Positions 3,999 through 28,494 are shown, numbered from the stretch's first letter. The stretch is 34,038 bases of DNA from an uncultured virus (IMG/VR IMGVR_UViG_3300031722_000014) (IMGVR_UViG_3300031722_000014); one strand, 5' to 3'. Notes: generated by a model from the letters alone, not told the origin. Numbers and translations are program-made.

Positions 3999-6554
3999 TT
4001 ACTTCTGTCCGACCACTTTGTTCTTCAGTGCGGTTTTTGCTTTAATTTGCTCGCGAGCCATTGCAGCTTTGTCTTTAATAACTTGAAGGTCCTTTTCATG
4101 TTTCATTCGTTTTTCTTCAAGGGCCATCTTATCTTTTTCTAATGACACTTTCTTATTTTCAATATCAACTTGATTCTTTAACTTCTTATGTTCTACATCC
4201 ATTTTCATAGATGCTTCTCTTTCTTTCTGAGACGCTTGCATTTCCTTATCCATGATTCCAGCCTCCATCTGAGTACGCTTAATACCCATATCTGCTATCT
4301 CCATTGGATCTGGTATACCATTATTATTTTGGTCTAAAGTCTGTTGAAGTTTGTAAACATCAATCTCAGCAACTGTAATTCTAGTCTGATTATCAGTATC
4401 AATCTTATATTTAGTCATTTCTAGCTCCTGTTGTTTCATTGCAATCTCTTGCTGTTTAACTTCATTCTGTGCTTGAATTAACTGCATTTGTCTTTGATTT
4501 TCTTGATCGGCAGCTTGTTGATTCTGTTCAGTTCTCTTCTGTTCTATAGATCCCAATCTTAATTTAATTGCAGATAAGTTATCTAATGTCATGATCTCAG
4601 CGATATCCAACAACGAAGCTCCATTCTGCATTGCAGGTTGATAAAGACTTTTAACTGTTTCAAGATTCTGATTTTCTTTACTAGAGTCAGATACAAATAT
4701 GTCGAAATCCTCGTAAAAGAAATTCTCGGCTAATGTCAAGAACGTTCTAGTAGAATCGTCTAATATGTATTGTAATTTAGTTTTCTTTGAATCTCTCCAT
4801 GCTTCTTTGGCTGTATTCAATAACATAGTCATTACATTTCTCTTGCACTGATTGTGCATCCAGAATAATGGCTCTGTTATATGACTAGATTGAGTAGTAG
4901 CTCTTTGTACATTTCCTACAAGTTCGCTAGTAGATATTTCTCCTTGTCTTTGTCTAGACACGCCAGAAATCTCTCCAATCATATCTTCGATCTTAGACAT
5001 AAGATTAATATACTGATCAATTACATTAGCCATAGTTAAATCCAATGCGCTTACCTGGTTAAATTGAGCAGGTTTACCACCTTCACGACCAGGAATATCC
5101 CATCCTTCTTCGTATGGATTAATGAAGTTTACACCTACCGCAGACAGATAATGCATCCATTTAGCAGCGTCAATGTTCATAGATTTAGGAATCTGCGTAA
5201 TATCCATTGTTATTACTTTACCTTTATCTCTAGCTAATGCCAATTCTAAACGATACCATATAATGATATACATATATTGCAATGGTTTCATTATAGATAC
5301 CAATGACTTAGAAGTAGAGTTAGAGTTATTATAGATAACACCTACATATGGTAATTTCTGTGAGTTAAGATTATCAGCGGATACGTGTTGATATTCTAAT
5401 GGTTGAATTCCTACATATAAGTCTTCTCCAATTCTATATCCTTCCCATACCTCAATAATCCATTTCCATTCTACAGAGATCTCATTTCCAATCTTCATAT
5501 AATCTTCGCTAACGATAGTTTGTTGAACTTGTCCAGCCTCATCAAACATTGTTACGAATCCTATCTTCTTATATGATTTCCATACAGCATGCCATAAGTT
5601 GATCTGATGATCATTATTAAAGTCATTGCTATTGCTAGTAATAGTCTTGAATTCATAGTGATTATAGTCTAATGCCCCAGTCTTTAAATCATTTCCATAT
5701 CTACCTGTAACTGGATTTTCTCCACCTAATTCAAGCAGTTTATTAAGATCTGACTCTTCCATTTTATCGAATAGTCTATCATATACTTCAGTATAAGACA
5801 TCCTCATTCGTCTACATGCCCAGTCTCCGTCTTCAATGAATTCAATATCAGGAGATGTGTCATGTGAAAAGTACATAGGATTTACTCTTTCTGCATTAGG
5901 TTCTCCATTAAGTATACCTACATAGTATAGTTCCTTGCCAGAGATAAGGCCATCCTTGAATCCTTTATGAAACTCATGTGGTAGATTTAATTGCTCTTTC
6001 AGATAAGCTAATGTATGGTAAGCAGAACTTTCTGCGATATCCTTATAGGATTGACCCATATACTTGCTAATCTTATCAGGTGGCATAATCTCTCCACTCT
6101 GTAGTTTCTGTTGAAATTCTTGTGCTCCTTCTTGAGACATACCCGCCATTAACTCTGCCATAGTATAGTCTATAAGCATCTGTTTTGACTTATCCTGTAT
6201 ATCGGAAGCTGCGTCCTGACTAGTTCTTATTACTCTAAAGCTAAATGGGTATTTAGTCTCTTCTCCAAGTAATAAATCAATTTTCGGTTTAATTATATTG
6301 AAATTCTGTGGACTTGCTGGAAATCCGTCATCTTGTTTAAATGGATCTGTTACATACTTAAGATCTTTCTCGTTGAAGATACTATTATACAAATCGTATA
6401 ATGTTTGCATCTCTTCGAATCCTGTATGCTCCTGTCCATTAGGAACGGTTTCCCCCATTCCAATAATGTAGTCTACGCACTGTTCTCTCCATTCTTTATC
6501 TTTCTTATTGATTGGTAGTTTTTGTGCTGGAAACATCGTTGTGTTATATTTCAT
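3999..6554 (-). CDS. Portal protein (crAss-like)
   Basis: 851 aa; NFNIIKPKIDLLLGEE motif, ISGVSRQRQG motif, long Q/E/K coiled-coil C-terminus; directly downstream of TerL. Confidence 0.92.
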   Translation of the reverse strand: MKYNTTMFPAQKLPINKKDKEWREQCVDYIIGMGETVPNGQEHTGFEEMQTLYDLYNSIFNEKDLKYVTDPFKQDDGFPASPQNFNIIKPKIDLLLGEETKYPFSFRVIRTSQDAASDIQDKSKQMLIDYTMAELMAGMSQEGAQEFQQKLQSGEIMPPDKISKYMGQSYKDIAESSAYHTLAYLKEQLNLPHEFHKGFKDGLISGKELYYVGILNGEPNAERVNPMYFSHDTSPDIEFIEDGDWACRRMRMSYTEVYDRLFDKMEESDLNKLLELGGENPVTGRYGNDLKTGALDYNHYEFKTITSNSNDFNNDHQINLWHAVWKSYKKIGFVTMFDEAGQVQQTIVSEDYMKIGNEISVEWKWIIEVWEGYRIGEDLYVGIQPLEYQHVSADNLNSQKLPYVGVIYNNSNSTSKSLVSIMKPLQYMYIIIWYRLELALARDKGKVITMDITQIPKSMNIDAAKWMHYLSAVGVNFINPYEEGWDIPGREGGKPAQFNQVSALDLTMANVIDQYINLMSKIEDMIGEISGVSRQRQGEISTSELVGNVQRATTQSSHITEPLFWMHNQCKRNVMTMLLNTAKEAWRDSKKTKLQYILDDSTRTFLTLAENFFYEDFDIFVSDSSKENQNLETVKSLYQPAMQNGASLLDIAEIMTLDNLSAIKLRLGSIEQKRTEQNQQAADQENQRQMQLIQAQNEVKQQEIAMKQQELEMTKYKIDTDNQTRITVAEIDVYKLQQTLDQNNNGIPDPMEIADMGIKRTQMEAGIMDKEMQASQKEREASMKMDVEHKKLKNQVDIENKKVSLEKDKMALEEKRMKHEKDLQVIKDKAAMAREQIKAKTALKNKVVGQK

Positions 6555-6570: not shown

Positions 6571-8625
6571 TTATATTATTTCTTCAAAATAACTATTGCT
6601 GCTACTTCCTGTTGTTTCGAACCAAGCTCTGGAAAACAGCGGCATATCAAACAGATCCTTTTTCTTTTCGTATCTTTCTTTCTGCTTAACATGCGTATTG
6701 TGTAATTGCTGACGATAAATCATCAGACATTGTAATGCTCTAACGCGGTCAAAGTTTCCTTTGTCATTATACTGTATAAGTTCCTCTAATAGAGGTTCTG
6801 ACAATATCCTAGTTAAGTTCTTTTTGCCTGGAGCATATTCTTCATTTAACCACTCCTTGATTAGACCTTCCGAATAGTCTATAATTTGAGTAGTCATGTG
6901 TATTCCTTTTCTTCTCTGTACTGTAGATTTGCCTATGATATCACTAATAATATCTGGTTGATCTGCCAGTAAGTAGTCGGAATGCTTTTGTGTAAAGTAA
7001 GGAAATATACCCTTCCTTTCATTTTCATATAGTAATCTAGCATTATAATACATTAATAGATTACGTACATTTTCATAATAATCCTCTGCCGTGTCTGGTC
7101 TACCCGTATACTCAGCAACTAATATATCATAATACTCTTCAAAGTTCTGAAATCTCTTGTATATAAATGTAGCTCCTAAGGAATTAGTTCCTGCCTTATC
7201 ATGATCATAAGGGTCACATCCTGCTATATATAACTGTCCTGAAGTATCCTTATTAGGATGCTCCCATATAACTATAGATCCTTCTGTTTTGTCGTCCCTT
7301 CCGAGTGGATACTTAGTAATATCTCCTTTCTGCTTAACGGTCCAATGTAACTCTCCATTAATCCATGATAGATCACCAACTTGTTTGTGTGATTGTAGTT
7401 TCTTATTAGTTCTAATAGATGCTAATTGATTCATCAGATCCTTCTTTGGAAATATATTACCAGTAAGTTCTAATACAGCCTCCTGTGGAGTGATTGGATT
7501 TTCAGCAATATACCTATCAATTGCTCTTGAATCAGAAGATCCGTCTATTACCTTTTGTCTCTCTTGTATTGCATACTCTATAGCTTTCTCTTTAAATGTA
7601 TTACCATTATGGTCCATATAAAGTCTTTTGCTATACATATCTAATACAGACATATTAGCATATACAGGAACAAAGAATCCGCATTCACTAGCCGAGGCGC
7701 CATCATCCCATATGTTTGAGAATGATTTTACGTTATACCCAGATGGATTATAGAACAATTCTTTAAGCCCATCGAACTTACTTGCACTATCACCACCGGT
7801 ACCAAAACAACACATAAGACCGAATGCTACTCCATCTTCCTCTACGGAAGGTCTAGCTATCTGCCACGCCTGAAGGATATCTTTAAACGATCCACCTTCT
7901 TCCCACAATATAAGCTTACCACGCTTACCACGAGCCTTATTGGGATCATTCTTAAGTGTTACTCCAATAATCTCAGATTTATATCCAATTTCTATCTTAT
8001 TACCCATTTCATCGGTAGTAAGAATAGAAGCACGTCTATGCATCTTAGTATTAACTGCTTGACGTTTCTTTGCCCATGCAGTATGTTCGTCCATGAAGTC
8101 CATAATATCCCAGGCCTTAGTTAAAAGACCATCACGTACTAAATATTCTGTCTCAGAGGCTATAGCGTACGATTTAGAGCCCGGTATGAGATAATAATTC
8201 CTACAGAGCATAGAACTACCCTTAAAAGAATAACCCTTACCACGAGCCTTTAAAGTGACCATATGCTTACCTTCATCCTCAGCCTCCTGAACACCTAAGA
8301 AGTAATAATAATCGTAGTCGTAGAAATCTGGGAACTCCCTTACTTTCTCTCTACGTTTCTTTATTTTCCCGTGCTTGTCCTTATAATCAAACTCAACAAG
8401 TCTTAGAATTGGACAGTAATTTAAATAGAAATAGTTATATCCACTAATCCAATCTCCATCTTCTGCGGTATATCCATCAGTACATCTAGACTCCTCTGTC
8501 TCCCAGTATTTGAGATATTCCGTAGTGCCACTCGGTGCAAAACAGTAAACCCCGTGCTGCTGGTAGTGCATGCACGGGGCTCGAAATTTATCAGAATTTA
8601 AAATCTTCTTACTAAAATCGATCAT
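6571..8625 (-). CDS. terL: Terminase large subunit
   Basis: Walker A-like LKARGKGYS, Walker B LILWEEGG, coupling motif FGTGG, nuclease residues in IAGCDPYDHD and GNFDRV. Confidence 0.95.
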   Translation of the reverse strand: MIDFSKKILNSDKFRAPCMHYQQHGVYCFAPSGTTEYLKYWETEESRCTDGYTAEDGDWISGYNYFYLNYCPILRLVEFDYKDKHGKIKKRREKVREFPDFYDYDYYYFLGVQEAEDEGKHMVTLKARGKGYSFKGSSMLCRNYYLIPGSKSYAIASETEYLVRDGLLTKAWDIMDFMDEHTAWAKKRQAVNTKMHRRASILTTDEMGNKIEIGYKSEIIGVTLKNDPNKARGKRGKLILWEEGGSFKDILQAWQIARPSVEEDGVAFGLMCCFGTGGDSASKFDGLKELFYNPSGYNVKSFSNIWDDGASASECGFFVPVYANMSVLDMYSKRLYMDHNGNTFKEKAIEYAIQERQKVIDGSSDSRAIDRYIAENPITPQEAVLELTGNIFPKKDLMNQLASIRTNKKLQSHKQVGDLSWINGELHWTVKQKGDITKYPLGRDDKTEGSIVIWEHPNKDTSGQLYIAGCDPYDHDKAGTNSLGATFIYKRFQNFEEYYDILVAEYTGRPDTAEDYYENVRNLLMYYNARLLYENERKGIFPYFTQKHSDYLLADQPDIISDIIGKSTVQRRKGIHMTTQIIDYSEGLIKEWLNEEYAPGKKNLTRILSEPLLEELIQYNDKGNFDRVRALQCLMIYRQQLHNTHVKQKERYEKKKDLFDMPLFSRAWFETTGSSSNSYFEEII

Positions 8626-21300: not shown

Positions 21301-21789
21301 ATGAAAACAAGTATCAAAATTATCATTTTCGTAGGCTTCTTGTTTGCAATCGCAGCAACAGCCGCTCTTACTTCATGCAAACATTTGCCTTGGCAAAAAG
21401 TAGAAACCGTTGACACTGTGAAAGCAGTAGCACCTGTAATGGTTGACGCAAACCTGTATCAAATTGTAATTACACGTGCAGATTCTCTTCAAACAGAATA
21501 CTCAGTGTACGCTTATGCAACAGATAAATGGGATGCCAGTCGTATTGGAGAAACAAAGTATTTAAATAATGAGCCGGTGGGTAGTACTATTCGAATAGTA
21601 TTAATAACGCCAATCAATAGTCCATTTAAATGCCCGGAATCAATAATACAGAAAGATGTTAAGCCTGACTCAATTGTAGCCAAGTGTAAGTCGACCGGAA
21701 AGAAACATATTGAATACACCAAAGGACCTAAAAAATCAGGAAAGGGAAAAGGTGGGTGCAAATGTTTATTTGAATACAATATAGTTTAA
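21301..21789 (+). CDS. Putative lipoprotein
   Basis: Signal MKTSIKIIIFVGFLFAIAATAALTS-C; basic and Cys-rich C-terminus. Confidence 0.75.
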   Translation: MKTSIKIIIFVGFLFAIAATAALTSCKHLPWQKVETVDTVKAVAPVMVDANLYQIVITRADSLQTEYSVYAYATDKWDASRIGETKYLNNEPVGSTIRIVLITPINSPFKCPESIIQKDVKPDSIVAKCKSTGKKHIEYTKGPKKSGKGKGGCKCLFEYNIV

Positions 21790-26188: not shown

Positions 26189-26286
26189 AGTCTATTAGCT
26201 CAGTTGGTTAGAGCGCATGAAAGTGACAAACCCGTTTTAACGGAAGGCATATCATGAAGTCGCGGGTTCGAGCCCTGTATAGACAA
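26189..26286 (+). tRNA. tRNA-like gene with a 31-nt expanded anticodon loop (no assignable anticodon)
   Basis: Acceptor GTCTAT/ATAGAC, D arm GCTC-AGTTGGTTA-GAGC, anticodon stem CATGA/TCATG enclosing 31 nt, T arm GCGGG-TTCGAGC-CCTGT. Confidence 0.75.
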
Positions 26287-26657: not shown

Positions 26658-27035
26658 ATGGAATGGACAAAAGAAACATTAGTAAATACATGTATTGAAG
26701 TGTCAAAAAGATACAATGGAAAGAAAATTATTAAATTCTATGAAAGTTTTGGATTTAAAAATAACCATAATCTTGTTGGAGATTCTACTATTGGATATTA
26801 TGGAATTTTAGAAGAAAACAATTCAATTATATTTCATAATATTCCATTGCTAAATGTAATCAAACTTCCTTCTAAGCCTCGTCGCAAATTTCCACGAGAA
26901 ATGATGGTATCCGAAGATGGACACGAATGGTTCAAATCAATAGTATTTGGTACCATAAAACACGAATATGGAAAATTCGTTATACGAAGAGGAAGTGATT
27001 CATTCAGAGCATTAAAATATGCAAAAGAAATTTAA
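26658..27035 (+). CDS. Hypothetical protein
   Basis: Likely start MEWTKETL at 26658; KFPREMMVSEDGHEW...KYAKEI C-terminal module. Confidence 0.7.
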   Translation: MEWTKETLVNTCIEVSKRYNGKKIIKFYESFGFKNNHNLVGDSTIGYYGILEENNSIIFHNIPLLNVIKLPSKPRRKFPREMMVSEDGHEWFKSIVFGTIKHEYGKFVIRRGSDSFRALKYAKEI

Positions 27036-27161
27036 CTCATTGCAATAGCAATTGGTGGAGTTTGTTCACTAAACCGAACAGGCCTAAGAGAATGGTTCGT
27101 ACATAAAAGGTTGTGCGCCCCATTCTCTATCATTTTAATATTAATCAATAATAAATATAAA

Positions 27162-27635
27162 GTGAAACACGAAGAAAACGAGATTTTAGATGCGCTGATC
27201 GCTCATGCTAGAACACAAGAAGAAGTACTGACTGCATTTATGGCAGCATTCCCAAAGACAGACGCCGAAAGACTGCACAAAAAGATTGGGAAAAAGTGGA
27301 ATGAATATCTAAGAAACAAAACCAACGTATCTTTACGTCATTGCGATACAAAAACATTAATAACAGTCTTAAGATCGTTAAATAATGATGTACGCGAAGC
27401 GATAATAAGAAAAGTTGAAATCAAATTGGTCAAAAAACCAAAGGTATACAAAGAGATTTATGAAGCGATGACACACAAAACAAATGCCTGGAATCAGGAT
27501 TTACAAAGAGAAAAATACGTTGAGTTAGTTAGCATATCTTCAGATGGCTATTTAATTCAGGTATGGAATGGATTAGAAATGTTTACATTTACAATCTACG
27601 ATGTGAATCAATTTTACCCGGCATTAAAACATTAA
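27162..27635 (+). CDS. Hypothetical protein
   Basis: ORF 27111..27635; the more likely start is GTG-KHEENE near 27162, after an AT-rich leader. Confidence 0.65.
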   Translation: MKHEENEILDALIAHARTQEEVLTAFMAAFPKTDAERLHKKIGKKWNEYLRNKTNVSLRHCDTKTLITVLRSLNNDVREAIIRKVEIKLVKKPKVYKEIYEAMTHKTNAWNQDLQREKYVELVSISSDGYLIQVWNGLEMFTFTIYDVNQFYPALKH

Positions 27636-27638
27636 GAA

Positions 27639-27702
27639 GTACGGTCTGTTAGGCTGTATTTATGACGAGCAAGACGGGACCTCGAAAGCCCCACCTCCAC
27701 CA
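27639..27702 (+). ncRNA. ssrA: Permuted tmRNA, acceptor piece
   Basis: Ends GAC-GGGAC-CTCGAAA-GCCC-CACCTCC-A-CCA. Upstream CGGTC, CTGTATT and GACGAGCAA pair with the coding piece. Confidence 0.85.
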
Positions 27703-27706
27703 AAAC

Positions 27707-27808
27707 TCTCATGTGCCGCAACTGAATAGCGGACCAGGCTAAGTAATTTAAAGAGCCTAATGCAAATTAGGTACCTGGAAGTTGTGGGTTTGAGCCCCAC
27801 CATGAGAG
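27707..27808 (+). tRNA. tRNA-like gene with a 35-nt expanded anticodon loop, nested in the tmRNA intervening segment
   Basis: Acceptor TCTCATG/CATGAGA, D arm CCGC/GCGG, anticodon stem CCAGG/CCTGG enclosing 35 nt, T arm GTGGG-TTTGAGC-CCCAC. Confidence 0.75.
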
Positions 27809-27822
27809 CGCTAATAAAACAC

Positions 27823-28015
27823 GGGGGTGCAAAGTATTGATTGGCGTCCGCTGAATATGGATAGGACTGCACACGCTAGATAACTGGCACAAAAACAATC
27901 CAAATCAACAATTATGTGGGCTTAATGTCTGCATAATTTAGAACGTACCTACCAGGTCAGGAGCAGAGATCATATCAAAGCCGCCTGTCTATTCAATTAG
28001 CCCTGGTAGGGTTTT
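27823..28015 (+). ncRNA. ssrA: Permuted tmRNA, coding piece; tag (A)GTKTIQINNYVGLMSA*
   Basis: Begins GGGGGTG, pairing with CACCTCC and giving G3-U70. ATAACT-GGC resume context; tag reading frame 27886-27936; 3' stem CCTACCAGG/CCTGGTAGG followed by GTTTT. Confidence 0.85.
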
Positions 28016-28110
28016 AAAACACGCCCTATATCCGACGAACAGCTTGGTCGGTCGGCAGCCTCGAGAACTGCGTAGGGAGCAATTATTAACAATTAAAATC
28101 AATTTAATTT

Positions 28111-28494
28111 ATGTGGATATTAATTATCTTCTCACTAATCATAACGATATTGTCGTTTGATTTATCTTACAACACATACGAGTTAAACTATTCCCATTGG
28201 AAAAAGAAACAGCGTAACCAAGGACTGAGCTCCACAAAGGAGTTTTACCGCAAAGAAATTGGACCGGAAATCCTCAGTAAACTATCGCGAATTATACCCG
28301 GAGTAAATCTTTGTGTATATATTTATGATTTGTATACTTGTGCCACTTATGAATTTGAATACTCTTCTAAAAGCATATTATATGATTTAAGAAGTAGAAA
28401 CAAAGGAATTAATGCTAAATTACTACACATATGCTGGACGCCAAAGAAGAGCTCAAAAAGAGACAATCTCTATCGAAAATCATTAAAAGAATAA
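28111..28494 (+). CDS. Membrane-anchored hypothetical protein
   Basis: 127 aa with an N-terminal hydrophobic helix. Confidence 0.55.
   Translation: MWILIIFSLIITILSFDLSYNTYELNYSHWKKKQRNQGLSSTKEFYRKEIGPEILSKLSRIIPGVNLCVYIYDLYTCATYEFEYSSKSILYDLRSRNKGINAKLLHICWTPKKSSKRDNLYRKSLKE

Follow-up and report, generated by a model that had tools for sequence, protein, structure and literature searches.

The locus described here raises the question of why the spacer of a permuted tmRNA gene, which lies between the two pieces of one ribosome-rescue RNA, should itself fold like a tRNA. The gene is carried by a 34,038-nt stretch of DNA from an uncultured virus; this whole stretch, at its full length, is referred to below as the window. 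To our knowledge, the cutting apart of permuted tmRNA pieces has little experimental basis, above all for the CCA-bearing 3' end. A preliminary description of the DNA had read the spacer as a case of tRNA punctuation. The analysis reported below covers the structure of the spacer, its relatives in other viruses, the parts of it that are conserved, its relation to the encoded CCA, and the explanations that compete for it.

The window and its permuted tmRNA gene

The window encodes a major head protein (468-1946), a portal protein (3999-6554) and a large terminase (6571-8625), all of which are assigned to crAss-type families by PHROGs. The terminase has 104 relatives in IMG/VR, ranging from 100% identity down to 62-64% in gut crAss-like contigs of c.100 kb. 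The region 27636-28110 is intergenic and is flanked by two ORFs. A scan of 27000-28400 for promoters and terminators gave promoter-like sites no higher than in shuffled sequences and 0 terminators. RNA matching the locus was found in one wetland metatranscriptome run, in which 9% of the sampled words were present and the sole contig was 151 nt long, over 27892-28036, with no coverage of the spacer.

The permuted tmRNA gene extends from 27643 to c.28040, with the acceptor piece upstream, the coding piece downstream and a spacer of 120 nt between them. The features of the gene and of its spacer, with the basis for each where it differs from the fold, are as follows.

27643..27702, + strand: tmRNA acceptor piece (RF04321 alignment, ARAGORN permuted call, sequence)
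27703..27706, + strand: trailer AAAC, in which C27706 (position -1) can pair with G27808 (position 73) (sequence)
27707..27808, + strand: nested tRNA-like RNA (fold, ARAGORN -i60, shuffle control, covariation)
27707-27713 with 27801-27807, + strand: acceptor stem of the nested element
27716-27732, + strand: D-like arm of the nested element, 4 bp with a 9-nt loop
27734-27738 with 27774-27778, + strand: 5-bp stem of the nested element, closing a 35-nt loop
27755-27772, + strand: 7-bp GCAA-capped hairpin inside the 35-nt loop
27779-27783, + strand: variable region of the nested element, 5 nt
27784-27800, + strand: T arm of the nested element, GUGGG UUUGAGC CCCAC
G27808, + strand: discriminator of the nested element (sequence)
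27809..27822, + strand: A/U-rich 14-nt stretch that would serve the nested element as 3' trailer and the coding piece as 5' leader (sequence)
27823..28036, + strand: tmRNA coding piece, starting GGGGGUG (RF04321, ARAGORN, RNA contig)

The end given for the coding piece, 28036, is the end of the one RNA-library contig and does not define the true 3' end. The acceptor piece comprises the 3' strand of P2, a degenerate T arm, the acceptor 3' strand CACCUCC, A73 at 27699 and CCA at 27700-27702. As in other two-piece tmRNAs, a 7-bp acceptor helix (GGGGGUG/CACCUCC) with G3:U70 joins the two pieces and is followed by A73 and CCA; this inter-piece helix is present in both the minimum-energy and the centroid folds of 27636-27885. 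G3:U70, A73 and CCA together make up the alanine identity set. The tag reading frame (27886-27936) encodes GTKTIQINNYVGLMSA followed by a stop codon. It has a resume codon and a hydrophobic C-terminus and is conserved in relatives: the tag DNA is identical in the relative G007, and the tag of L344 reads GNNFQMRNYVGLMSA before its stop codon.

Standard tools detect the gene poorly. ARAGORN reported a permuted tmRNA at 27608-28027, with the tag GTKTIQINNYVGLMSA and a stop codon, when its threshold was lowered to 80%, and no tmRNA at its default setting over the window. The RF04321 model scored 31.6 bits (E 1.8e-4) on 27643-27936, below its gathering score of 47, with an insertion of c.90 nt in the spacer loop. 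Same-clade relatives scored 27.8-37.6 bits on this model, and one more distant crAss-like tmRNA scored 53.1. The tmRNA's own T arm (27676-27695) is non-canonical, with a 3-4-bp GGG/CCC stem and the loop CCUCGAAA, which has no UUC. The CCUCGAAA type of arm is identical in the relative G010, and other non-canonical loops occur in G007, L311, L344 and L345. The non-canonical T arm may be the cause of the low RF04321 score.

A tRNA-shaped RNA in the spacer

The preliminary description had placed a cloverleaf over most of the 120-nt spacer, beginning 4 nt after the CCA and ending 14 nt before the coding piece, and these coordinates proved exact to the base. The minimum-energy and centroid folds of the spacer are both this cloverleaf, at -35.1 kcal/mol (z = -2.77), and 1 of 200 shuffled sequences was as stable. 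When the 250 nt from 27636 to 27885 were folded together, the cloverleaf persisted inside the tmRNA acceptor helix, the 250 nt as a whole being not unusually stable (z = 0.18). Plain ARAGORN over the window missed the nested element. With the -i60 option and the default threshold, ARAGORN called it as tRNA-Leu(aag) with a 28-nt insert, which was one of only 3 calls in the window; the same search made 0 calls on 100 dinucleotide shuffles of the 34-kb window. The cloverleaf is not a product of chance.

The element shares with tRNAs a 7-bp acceptor stem, a 5-bp T stem with G53:C61 and a 7-nt T loop. The T loop of the window, UUUGAGC, has U where C56 is usual. The D-like arm has a 4-bp stem and the 9-nt loop AACUGAAUA, which contains one G and then A, compared with the G18 G19 of tRNAs, and an A19-U56 pair may conceivably replace G19-C56. 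The anticodon region does not have the form of a tRNA: the loop is 35 nt long, and taking out 28 nt would leave CUAAGUA with A34 and U37. The tRNA model RF00005 (gathering score 29 bits) gave no match at E<=10 over 27400-28300.

Relatives of the locus and their spacers

Three IMG/VR contigs and two metagenome contigs are identical to the window at the locus and therefore provide no covariation. Searches for close relatives with flanking proteins and exact patterns returned only the three identical IMG/VR contigs and G007. A T-arm pattern scan of metagenomes gave 58 loci, of which 2 were identical to the window and 56 were unrelated (ordinary tRNA genes or coding DNA), and the window tmRNA had no match among 50,697 phage records. 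RF04321 was also tried as a finder on whole relatives and was rejected, as it missed the tmRNA of G007 and its weak matches in G002, G005 and G007 were coding DNA. With BLAST of the whole relatives, homologs of the locus were located in G007 (TerL 80%) as well as in G010 and G012 (TerL 73%), and the acceptor piece of the window is also present in G010 and G012. A pattern taken from the 5' end of the coding piece matched 50 viral loci, comprising 33 clade tmRNAs (27 unique) and 17 chance matches. A bacterial genome scan with the clade tmRNA 5' pattern gave 102 loci, none of them a clade tmRNA (regular expression; ten checked by eye). A pattern combining the nested T arm with the acceptor 3' strand had 0 matches in the bacterial genomes, and thus gave no sign of host-tRNA identity or of an attachment site.

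The tree of the tmRNAs contains two clades with 100/100 support each; it has no outgroup and does not settle the order within clade A. The six sequences of clade A are those of the window, G007 (L321), L345, L311, L344 and G010 (L323). Apart from G010, they have five distinct spacers, which measure 88-123 nt from the CCA onward, with a tRNA-shaped element in every one. Clade B contains 21 unique sequences from gut-type crAss-like contigs, all with an A/U-rich spacer of 16-21 nt. Three more distant crAss-like tmRNAs, G018, G020 and G021, have unrelated spacers of 114-135 nt that received no tRNA call. An extra scan of viral sequences for CCA followed by a tRNA-like spacer gave 27 loci, 19 of them distinct, and the sole ARAGORN call among the 19 was L355, which is the same as L311. 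The preliminary description had named unstructured spacers in homologous permuted tmRNAs as the finding that would speak against its reading; such spacers do occur in the wider family and are not what is found in the near clade.

The spacer of G010 (IMGVR_UViG_3300042860_003408; L323:635-889, - strand) is 260 nt long, contains an ORF of 84 aa (beginning MKTITCNG) and is not preceded by an encoded CCA. The last codons of the ORF overlap the 5' end of the tmRNA. The ORF had no significant match in Pfam, the best being Dabb (E 0.009), below the cut-off.

Conserved and variable parts of the element

In the five elements, the 7 bp of the acceptor stem and the 5 bp of the T stem pair in 59 of 60 cells, and double changes were counted by hand in 10 of the 12 pairs. 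The pair G53:C61 is invariant in all five, and the T stem covaries at the other four of its five pairs. The T loops read UUUGAGC, UUUGAGU or UUCGAAU, with U54, U55, G57 and A58 kept throughout. The L344 element was misaligned by MAFFT, and by RNAalifold when all five sequences were used, so it was handled by hand only and left out of the tool-based counts. For the four alignable sequences, RNAalifold gave 18 pairs, 11 of them with compensatory change, which make up the acceptor stem (8 bp including -1:73), a central tetraloop hairpin and the T arm. A pair count on the same four sequences found 95.8% of cells paired and 11 double-change pairs, against 4.2 +/- 1.5 after shuffling (0 of 500 shuffles reached 11) and 0-3 in slid controls; as the sequences are four and related, the shuffle figure is not a probability, and the slid controls, which keep the relatedness, fall far short. 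The acceptor and T-arm sequence of the L344 element is unlike the others. This element may be a replacement and not an ortholog, which would fit a swappable slot.

The region between the D-like arm and the T arm is unalignable and differs in each lineage, as follows.

Window: a 5-bp stem whose 35-nt loop contains a 7-bp hairpin with a GCAA cap
G007 and L345: a 5-bp hairpin with GAAA or GCAA as its cap
L311: an arm of 17 nt that has A33 and, in its anticodon stem, two mismatches
L344: 37 nt with no cloverleaf

The anticodons assigned by ARAGORN differ in the same way, being aag in the window and gta in L311 at the default threshold, and cac in G007 and cat in L345 at the 85% threshold only; L344 received none. 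Among the relatives' elements, that of L311 alone passes RF00005, with 46.3 bits, and those of G007, L345 and L344 gave no match at E<=1. A hairpin with a GNRA cap (GCAA or GAAA) is found in three of the five elements and covaries between G007 and L345.

The pattern of changes indicates that the upper half of the element is kept by selection, namely the acceptor stem, the T arm and usually the D-like arm, and that the anticodon arm is free to decay or expand. A helix of acceptor stem and T arm that is kept beside an anticodon arm that is not is what would be expected of a processing signal. The element appears to be tRNA-derived and tRNA-shaped, and a conserved decoding role is very unlikely. 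Since the anticodon arm differs in all five elements, the term tRNA-like RNA is used here in place of decoding tRNA. A characterization of the element as almost a tRNA is not supported, as its anticodon arm is not conserved and, in the window, carries the 35-nt loop.

Spacing and the encoded CCA

The element sits exactly at the ends of the neighbouring mature RNAs, separated in the window by 4 nt from the CCA and by 14 nt from G1 of the tmRNA. Its start in all five lineages follows the CCA by 3 nt (AAA or AUU) and position -1, and its end lies 11-15 nt before G1 in all five. Positions -1 and 73 are C and G in four of the five lineages, so an eighth acceptor pair is possible in these.

The tmRNA CCA is encoded in each of the five lineages that have the element, and the 22 related tmRNAs that lack it (G010 and the 21 unique clade B sequences) have A-CUA at this site, an association that amounts to about two independent contrasts, one between the two clades and one inside clade A, where G010 differs from the others and sits on a long branch. 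Another 21 viral permuted tmRNA loci also encode CCA, with spacers of 18-176 nt, and a tRNA call was made in the spacer of 0 of the 21. An encoded CCA in general therefore needs no tRNA-like element. Many of these 21 spacers are long hairpins closed next to the CCA.

A proposed role in precursor processing

RNase P and RNase Z recognise the acceptor stem and the T arm of their substrates. Where a tRNA precursor has no CCA, RNase Z cleaves it directly 3' of the discriminator; CCA inhibits the enzyme, and precursors that encode CCA instead need a downstream endonuclease cut followed by exonuclease trimming. Because of this inhibition, an RNase P site close by would be of use only where the CCA is encoded. 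In the reading favoured here, to which about an even chance is given, the element in the spacer serves RNase P and RNase Z as a signal for cleavage, and the downstream cut that is needed would be made by RNase P on a tRNA-like substrate lying 3-4 nt beyond the CCA. Host RNase P would cleave just 5' of the nested acceptor stem, at 27706/27707, or at 27705/27706 should C-1 be paired with G73. The acceptor piece would be left with its encoded CCA and a trailer of 3-4 nt, to be trimmed by 3' exonucleases. RNase Z would cleave behind G27808, and a cut by RNase P at 27822/27823 would give the coding piece its mature 5' end. One transcript would in this way yield the acceptor piece, a tRNA-like RNA of c.102 nt and the coding piece. 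All of these cleavage steps, the enzymes named for them and tmRNA maturation as the selected trait are proposed from comparison of sequences.

A processing signal is consistent with the real structure of the element, its conservation in five lineages, the fixed spacing in all five, the link to the encoded CCA and a parallel in clade B that is described below, and the covarying parts are the acceptor stem and the T arm. However, the element is dispensable in the wider family, since clade B and G010 do without it, none of the 21 other CCA-encoding viral loci had a tRNA call in the spacer, and the same conservation would be expected if the released tRNA-like RNA had a use of its own. Of the original punctuation reading, the parts that stand are a tRNA-shaped RNA apparently under selection, a spacing fixed in five of five lineages and the co-occurrence with CCA; the origin by duplication is not supported. 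A tRNA mimic in the spacer, at a fixed distance from the CCA end and tracking the encoded CCA, leads to a direct and testable model of precursor processing.

The main rival to a processing signal is a passenger RNA in an exchangeable slot, which is possible but rather doubtful. In such a slot, phage two-piece tmRNAs would accept whatever insert the tRNA enzymes can remove. The element would then be cargo, either with its own use once released (for example as a decoy against defence systems that target tRNAs, or by binding tRNA-handling proteins) or selfish, and tmRNA maturation would be independent of it. The spacers of close relatives do vary, being tRNA-like, an 84-aa ORF in G010 or 16-21 nt in clade B, and those of other phages range from 18 to 176 nt and include a conserved 104-nt family. 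The L344 element looks non-orthologous, and the GNRA hairpin in three of five elements, with its covariation between G007 and L345, hints at selection beyond the acceptor and T arms. On the other hand, the sequence does not allow any function to be named for a passenger, co-adaptation with the tmRNA end is suggested by the CCA link and by the constant distance to the CCA, and the strongest constraint falls on the parts that processing enzymes recognise. A decaying remnant of a captured tRNA, now a mere stem that clamps the tmRNA halves with no selection on its tRNA features, is improbable. Plain hairpins closed right after the CCA make up the spacers of other phages, and the anticodon arm is decayed in all five elements, but a mere clamp would not need the covariation at four of five T-stem pairs, nor the U54, U55, G57 and A58 of the T loop and the G53:C61 that all five have kept. 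The middle of the element, moreover, has diverged too far to be aligned, yet pairing holds in 59 of 60 stem cells.

A working, decoding tRNA that loses its 28-nt anticodon-loop insert once transcribed is highly improbable. It would agree with the ARAGORN -i60 call of tRNA-Leu(aag) with a 28-nt intron, with a second anticodon-loop insert in the genome (24 nt at 37/38 of a tRNA-His(GUG)), and with the L311 element, which encodes CCA and has an Rfam tRNA score of 46.3 bits. Yet the five elements have no anticodon in common, and any excision to a 7-nt loop in the window would leave A34 and U37. RF00005 has no match in the window (E<=10) or in G007, L345 and L344 (E<=1), the L311 element has two anticodon-stem mismatches and A33, and no RNA ligase or splicing endonuclease was found in 14 window ORFs searched with Pfam or 16 searched with PHROGs. 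Least probable of all is the origin put forward in the preliminary description, in which ssrA was duplicated in tandem on either side of a tRNA gene and then lost its outer halves, leaving the permuted order. In its favour, the sequence lying exactly between the pieces is tRNA-derived, and the L311 copy is a near-normal tRNA at 46.3 bits. Against this, the same permuted order is found with a 16-21-nt spacer in the 21 unique clade B sequences, and the distant crAss-like tmRNAs have their unrelated 114-135-nt spacers. As permuted tmRNAs also occur with a short or an ORF spacer, the tRNA-like element is not tied to permutation itself, and the distribution of spacer types (short in clade B, an ORF in G010), on a tree that is unrooted, gives the duplication no support.

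tRNA-like elements in the sister clade

A tRNA-like element, defined by 7/7 acceptor pairs, 5/5 T-stem pairs and the T-loop motif, was found 3' of the coding-piece 5' end in 20 of the 21 clade B sequences; in 19 of these it starts at 143-149 nt, and in the remaining one, L316, at 257 nt. By the same definition, 0 of the 6 clade A sequences had such an element within 600 nt. The clade B elements score 28-35 bits on the Rfam tRNA model, mostly have an aberrant anticodon region and received no ARAGORN calls. Examples are L209:1387-1459, L210:1218-1290 and L215:1385-1457, and others are at the L303-L350 loci. The tmRNAs of this gut-type crAss-like clade have a very short coding piece, with the tRNA-like element immediately after it. 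A variant in L320, L342 and L350 resembles tRNA-Ile(GAU).

As judged from their sequences, both clades carry tRNA-shaped elements at boundaries of the tmRNA pieces, and the boundaries are different ones. A tentative extension of the processing-signal reading is that crAss-like phages could generally build tRNA-shaped punctuation into their tmRNA genes. In clade A the element would lie between the pieces, would have co-evolved with the encoded CCA and would provide an entry cut by RNase P, and not by RNase Z, for the tmRNA 3' end. In clade B, with no CCA, the module after the coding piece would mark the 3' end of that piece. If this is true, a phage would pick the host maturation route of its ribosome-rescue RNA through the placement of a tRNA mimic.

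Comparison with known systems

tRNA-like processing signals include the t-elements of plant mitochondria, mascRNA at the MALAT1 3' end and mitochondrial tRNA punctuation. The t-elements and mascRNA resemble the element of the window in having a tRNA fold, no decoding role and a position at the boundary of another mature RNA. They differ in being eukaryotic or organellar and in that their cleavage has been shown experimentally, whereas cleavage of the phage tmRNA precursor is proposed here on other grounds. A processing role for the spacer element would add a case from a bacterial virus to this short list.

Two-piece tmRNAs have been reported from Alphaproteobacteria, some Betaproteobacteria, cyanobacteria and marine phages, according to PMC11915505 and to PMC9004378, which deals with phage Melnitz. 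The latter gives 53 of 133 unique phage tmRNAs as two-piece by ARAGORN. The tmRNA of the window shares with the two-piece tmRNAs the order of acceptor piece, intervening segment and coding piece, as well as G3:U70, A73, CCA and the tag frame. In contrast to those described by RF04321, it scores 31.6 bits, below 47, has a non-canonical T arm, and has a conserved tRNA-like RNA as its spacer. SsrA is annotated in the RefSeq crAss-like phages cr125_1 (NC_055900.1, Suoliviridae), cr114_1, cr52_1 and cr60_1, as homologs of the gut tmRNAs. These belong to the same virus order as the window and have a homologous permuted tmRNA, the TerL of the window being 62-64% identical to that of gut contigs. Unlike the window, the gut relatives in IMG/VR have no encoded CCA, a 16-21-nt spacer and a tRNA-like element after the coding piece.

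The permuted tmRNA of GCA-2688965__sp002688965.2 has an intact tRNA-Ala in its intervening sequence, a feature called unique in PMC11915505. As in the window, a tRNA-type gene lies between the acceptor and coding pieces. The published case concerns one tRNA, intact and high-scoring, from a MAG with an archaeal label. The elements reported here differ from it, as there described, in that they belong to a phage clade, have no usable anticodon arm, fail the Rfam tRNA model in four of five lineages and covary in their acceptor and T arms. The elements of the window and of L311 do not belong to a class of intact tRNAs in spacers, as that of the window fails RF00005, and that of L311 passes it but has a defective anticodon stem and A33. 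A literature search, whose scope did not extend to classic work on two-piece processing, returned no account of a conserved anticodon-less tRNA-like element in phage tmRNA spacers or of a link to CCA. The element also matters for annotation: the spacer insert hides the tmRNA from default ARAGORN and from the Rfam gathering score, and it yields false calls of intron-containing tRNAs.

Other structured RNAs in the window and in other phages

The window contains a tRNA-His(GUG) gene at 26189-26286 (+ strand), with canonical D and T arms and an Rfam score of 43.2 bits. It has a 24-nt insert exactly between positions 37 and 38, and A33 instead of U. Its ortholog in G007 (21346-21419) is uninterrupted at 75 nt, and the tRNAs of three other clade A phages that were checked are all 70-75 nt long. 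No splicing enzyme was found near the tRNA-His of the window, which may be a disabled gene or carry an unknown kind of short insert.

A spacer of 104 nt (AAAUCU..UGGUAUUAUACC..) is shared by the phage permuted tmRNAs L352, L358, L363, L364, L366, L367, L368, L371, L374 and L377. A shorter form of it is found in L027, and the family is not tRNA-like by ARAGORN. L370:448-731 (IMGVR_UViG_3300034024_000020) is an unrelated alpha-type permuted tmRNA of 69.7 bits, and its 95-nt spacer is closed by a 9-bp stem. This spacer received no tRNA call from ARAGORN or Rfam, and its fold is not unusually stable (z = 0.27). It contains a T-arm-like hairpin, CAGG UUCGAGU CCUG, 3 nt before the closing strand. 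In the gut crAss-like contigs, strong Rfam matches to RAGATH-7-assoc (138-141 bits) and RAGATH-9 (123 bits) lie at L209:2043-2170, L210:2012-2139 and L215:2817-2962, all on the - strand and c.0.3-1.2 kb upstream of the tmRNA.
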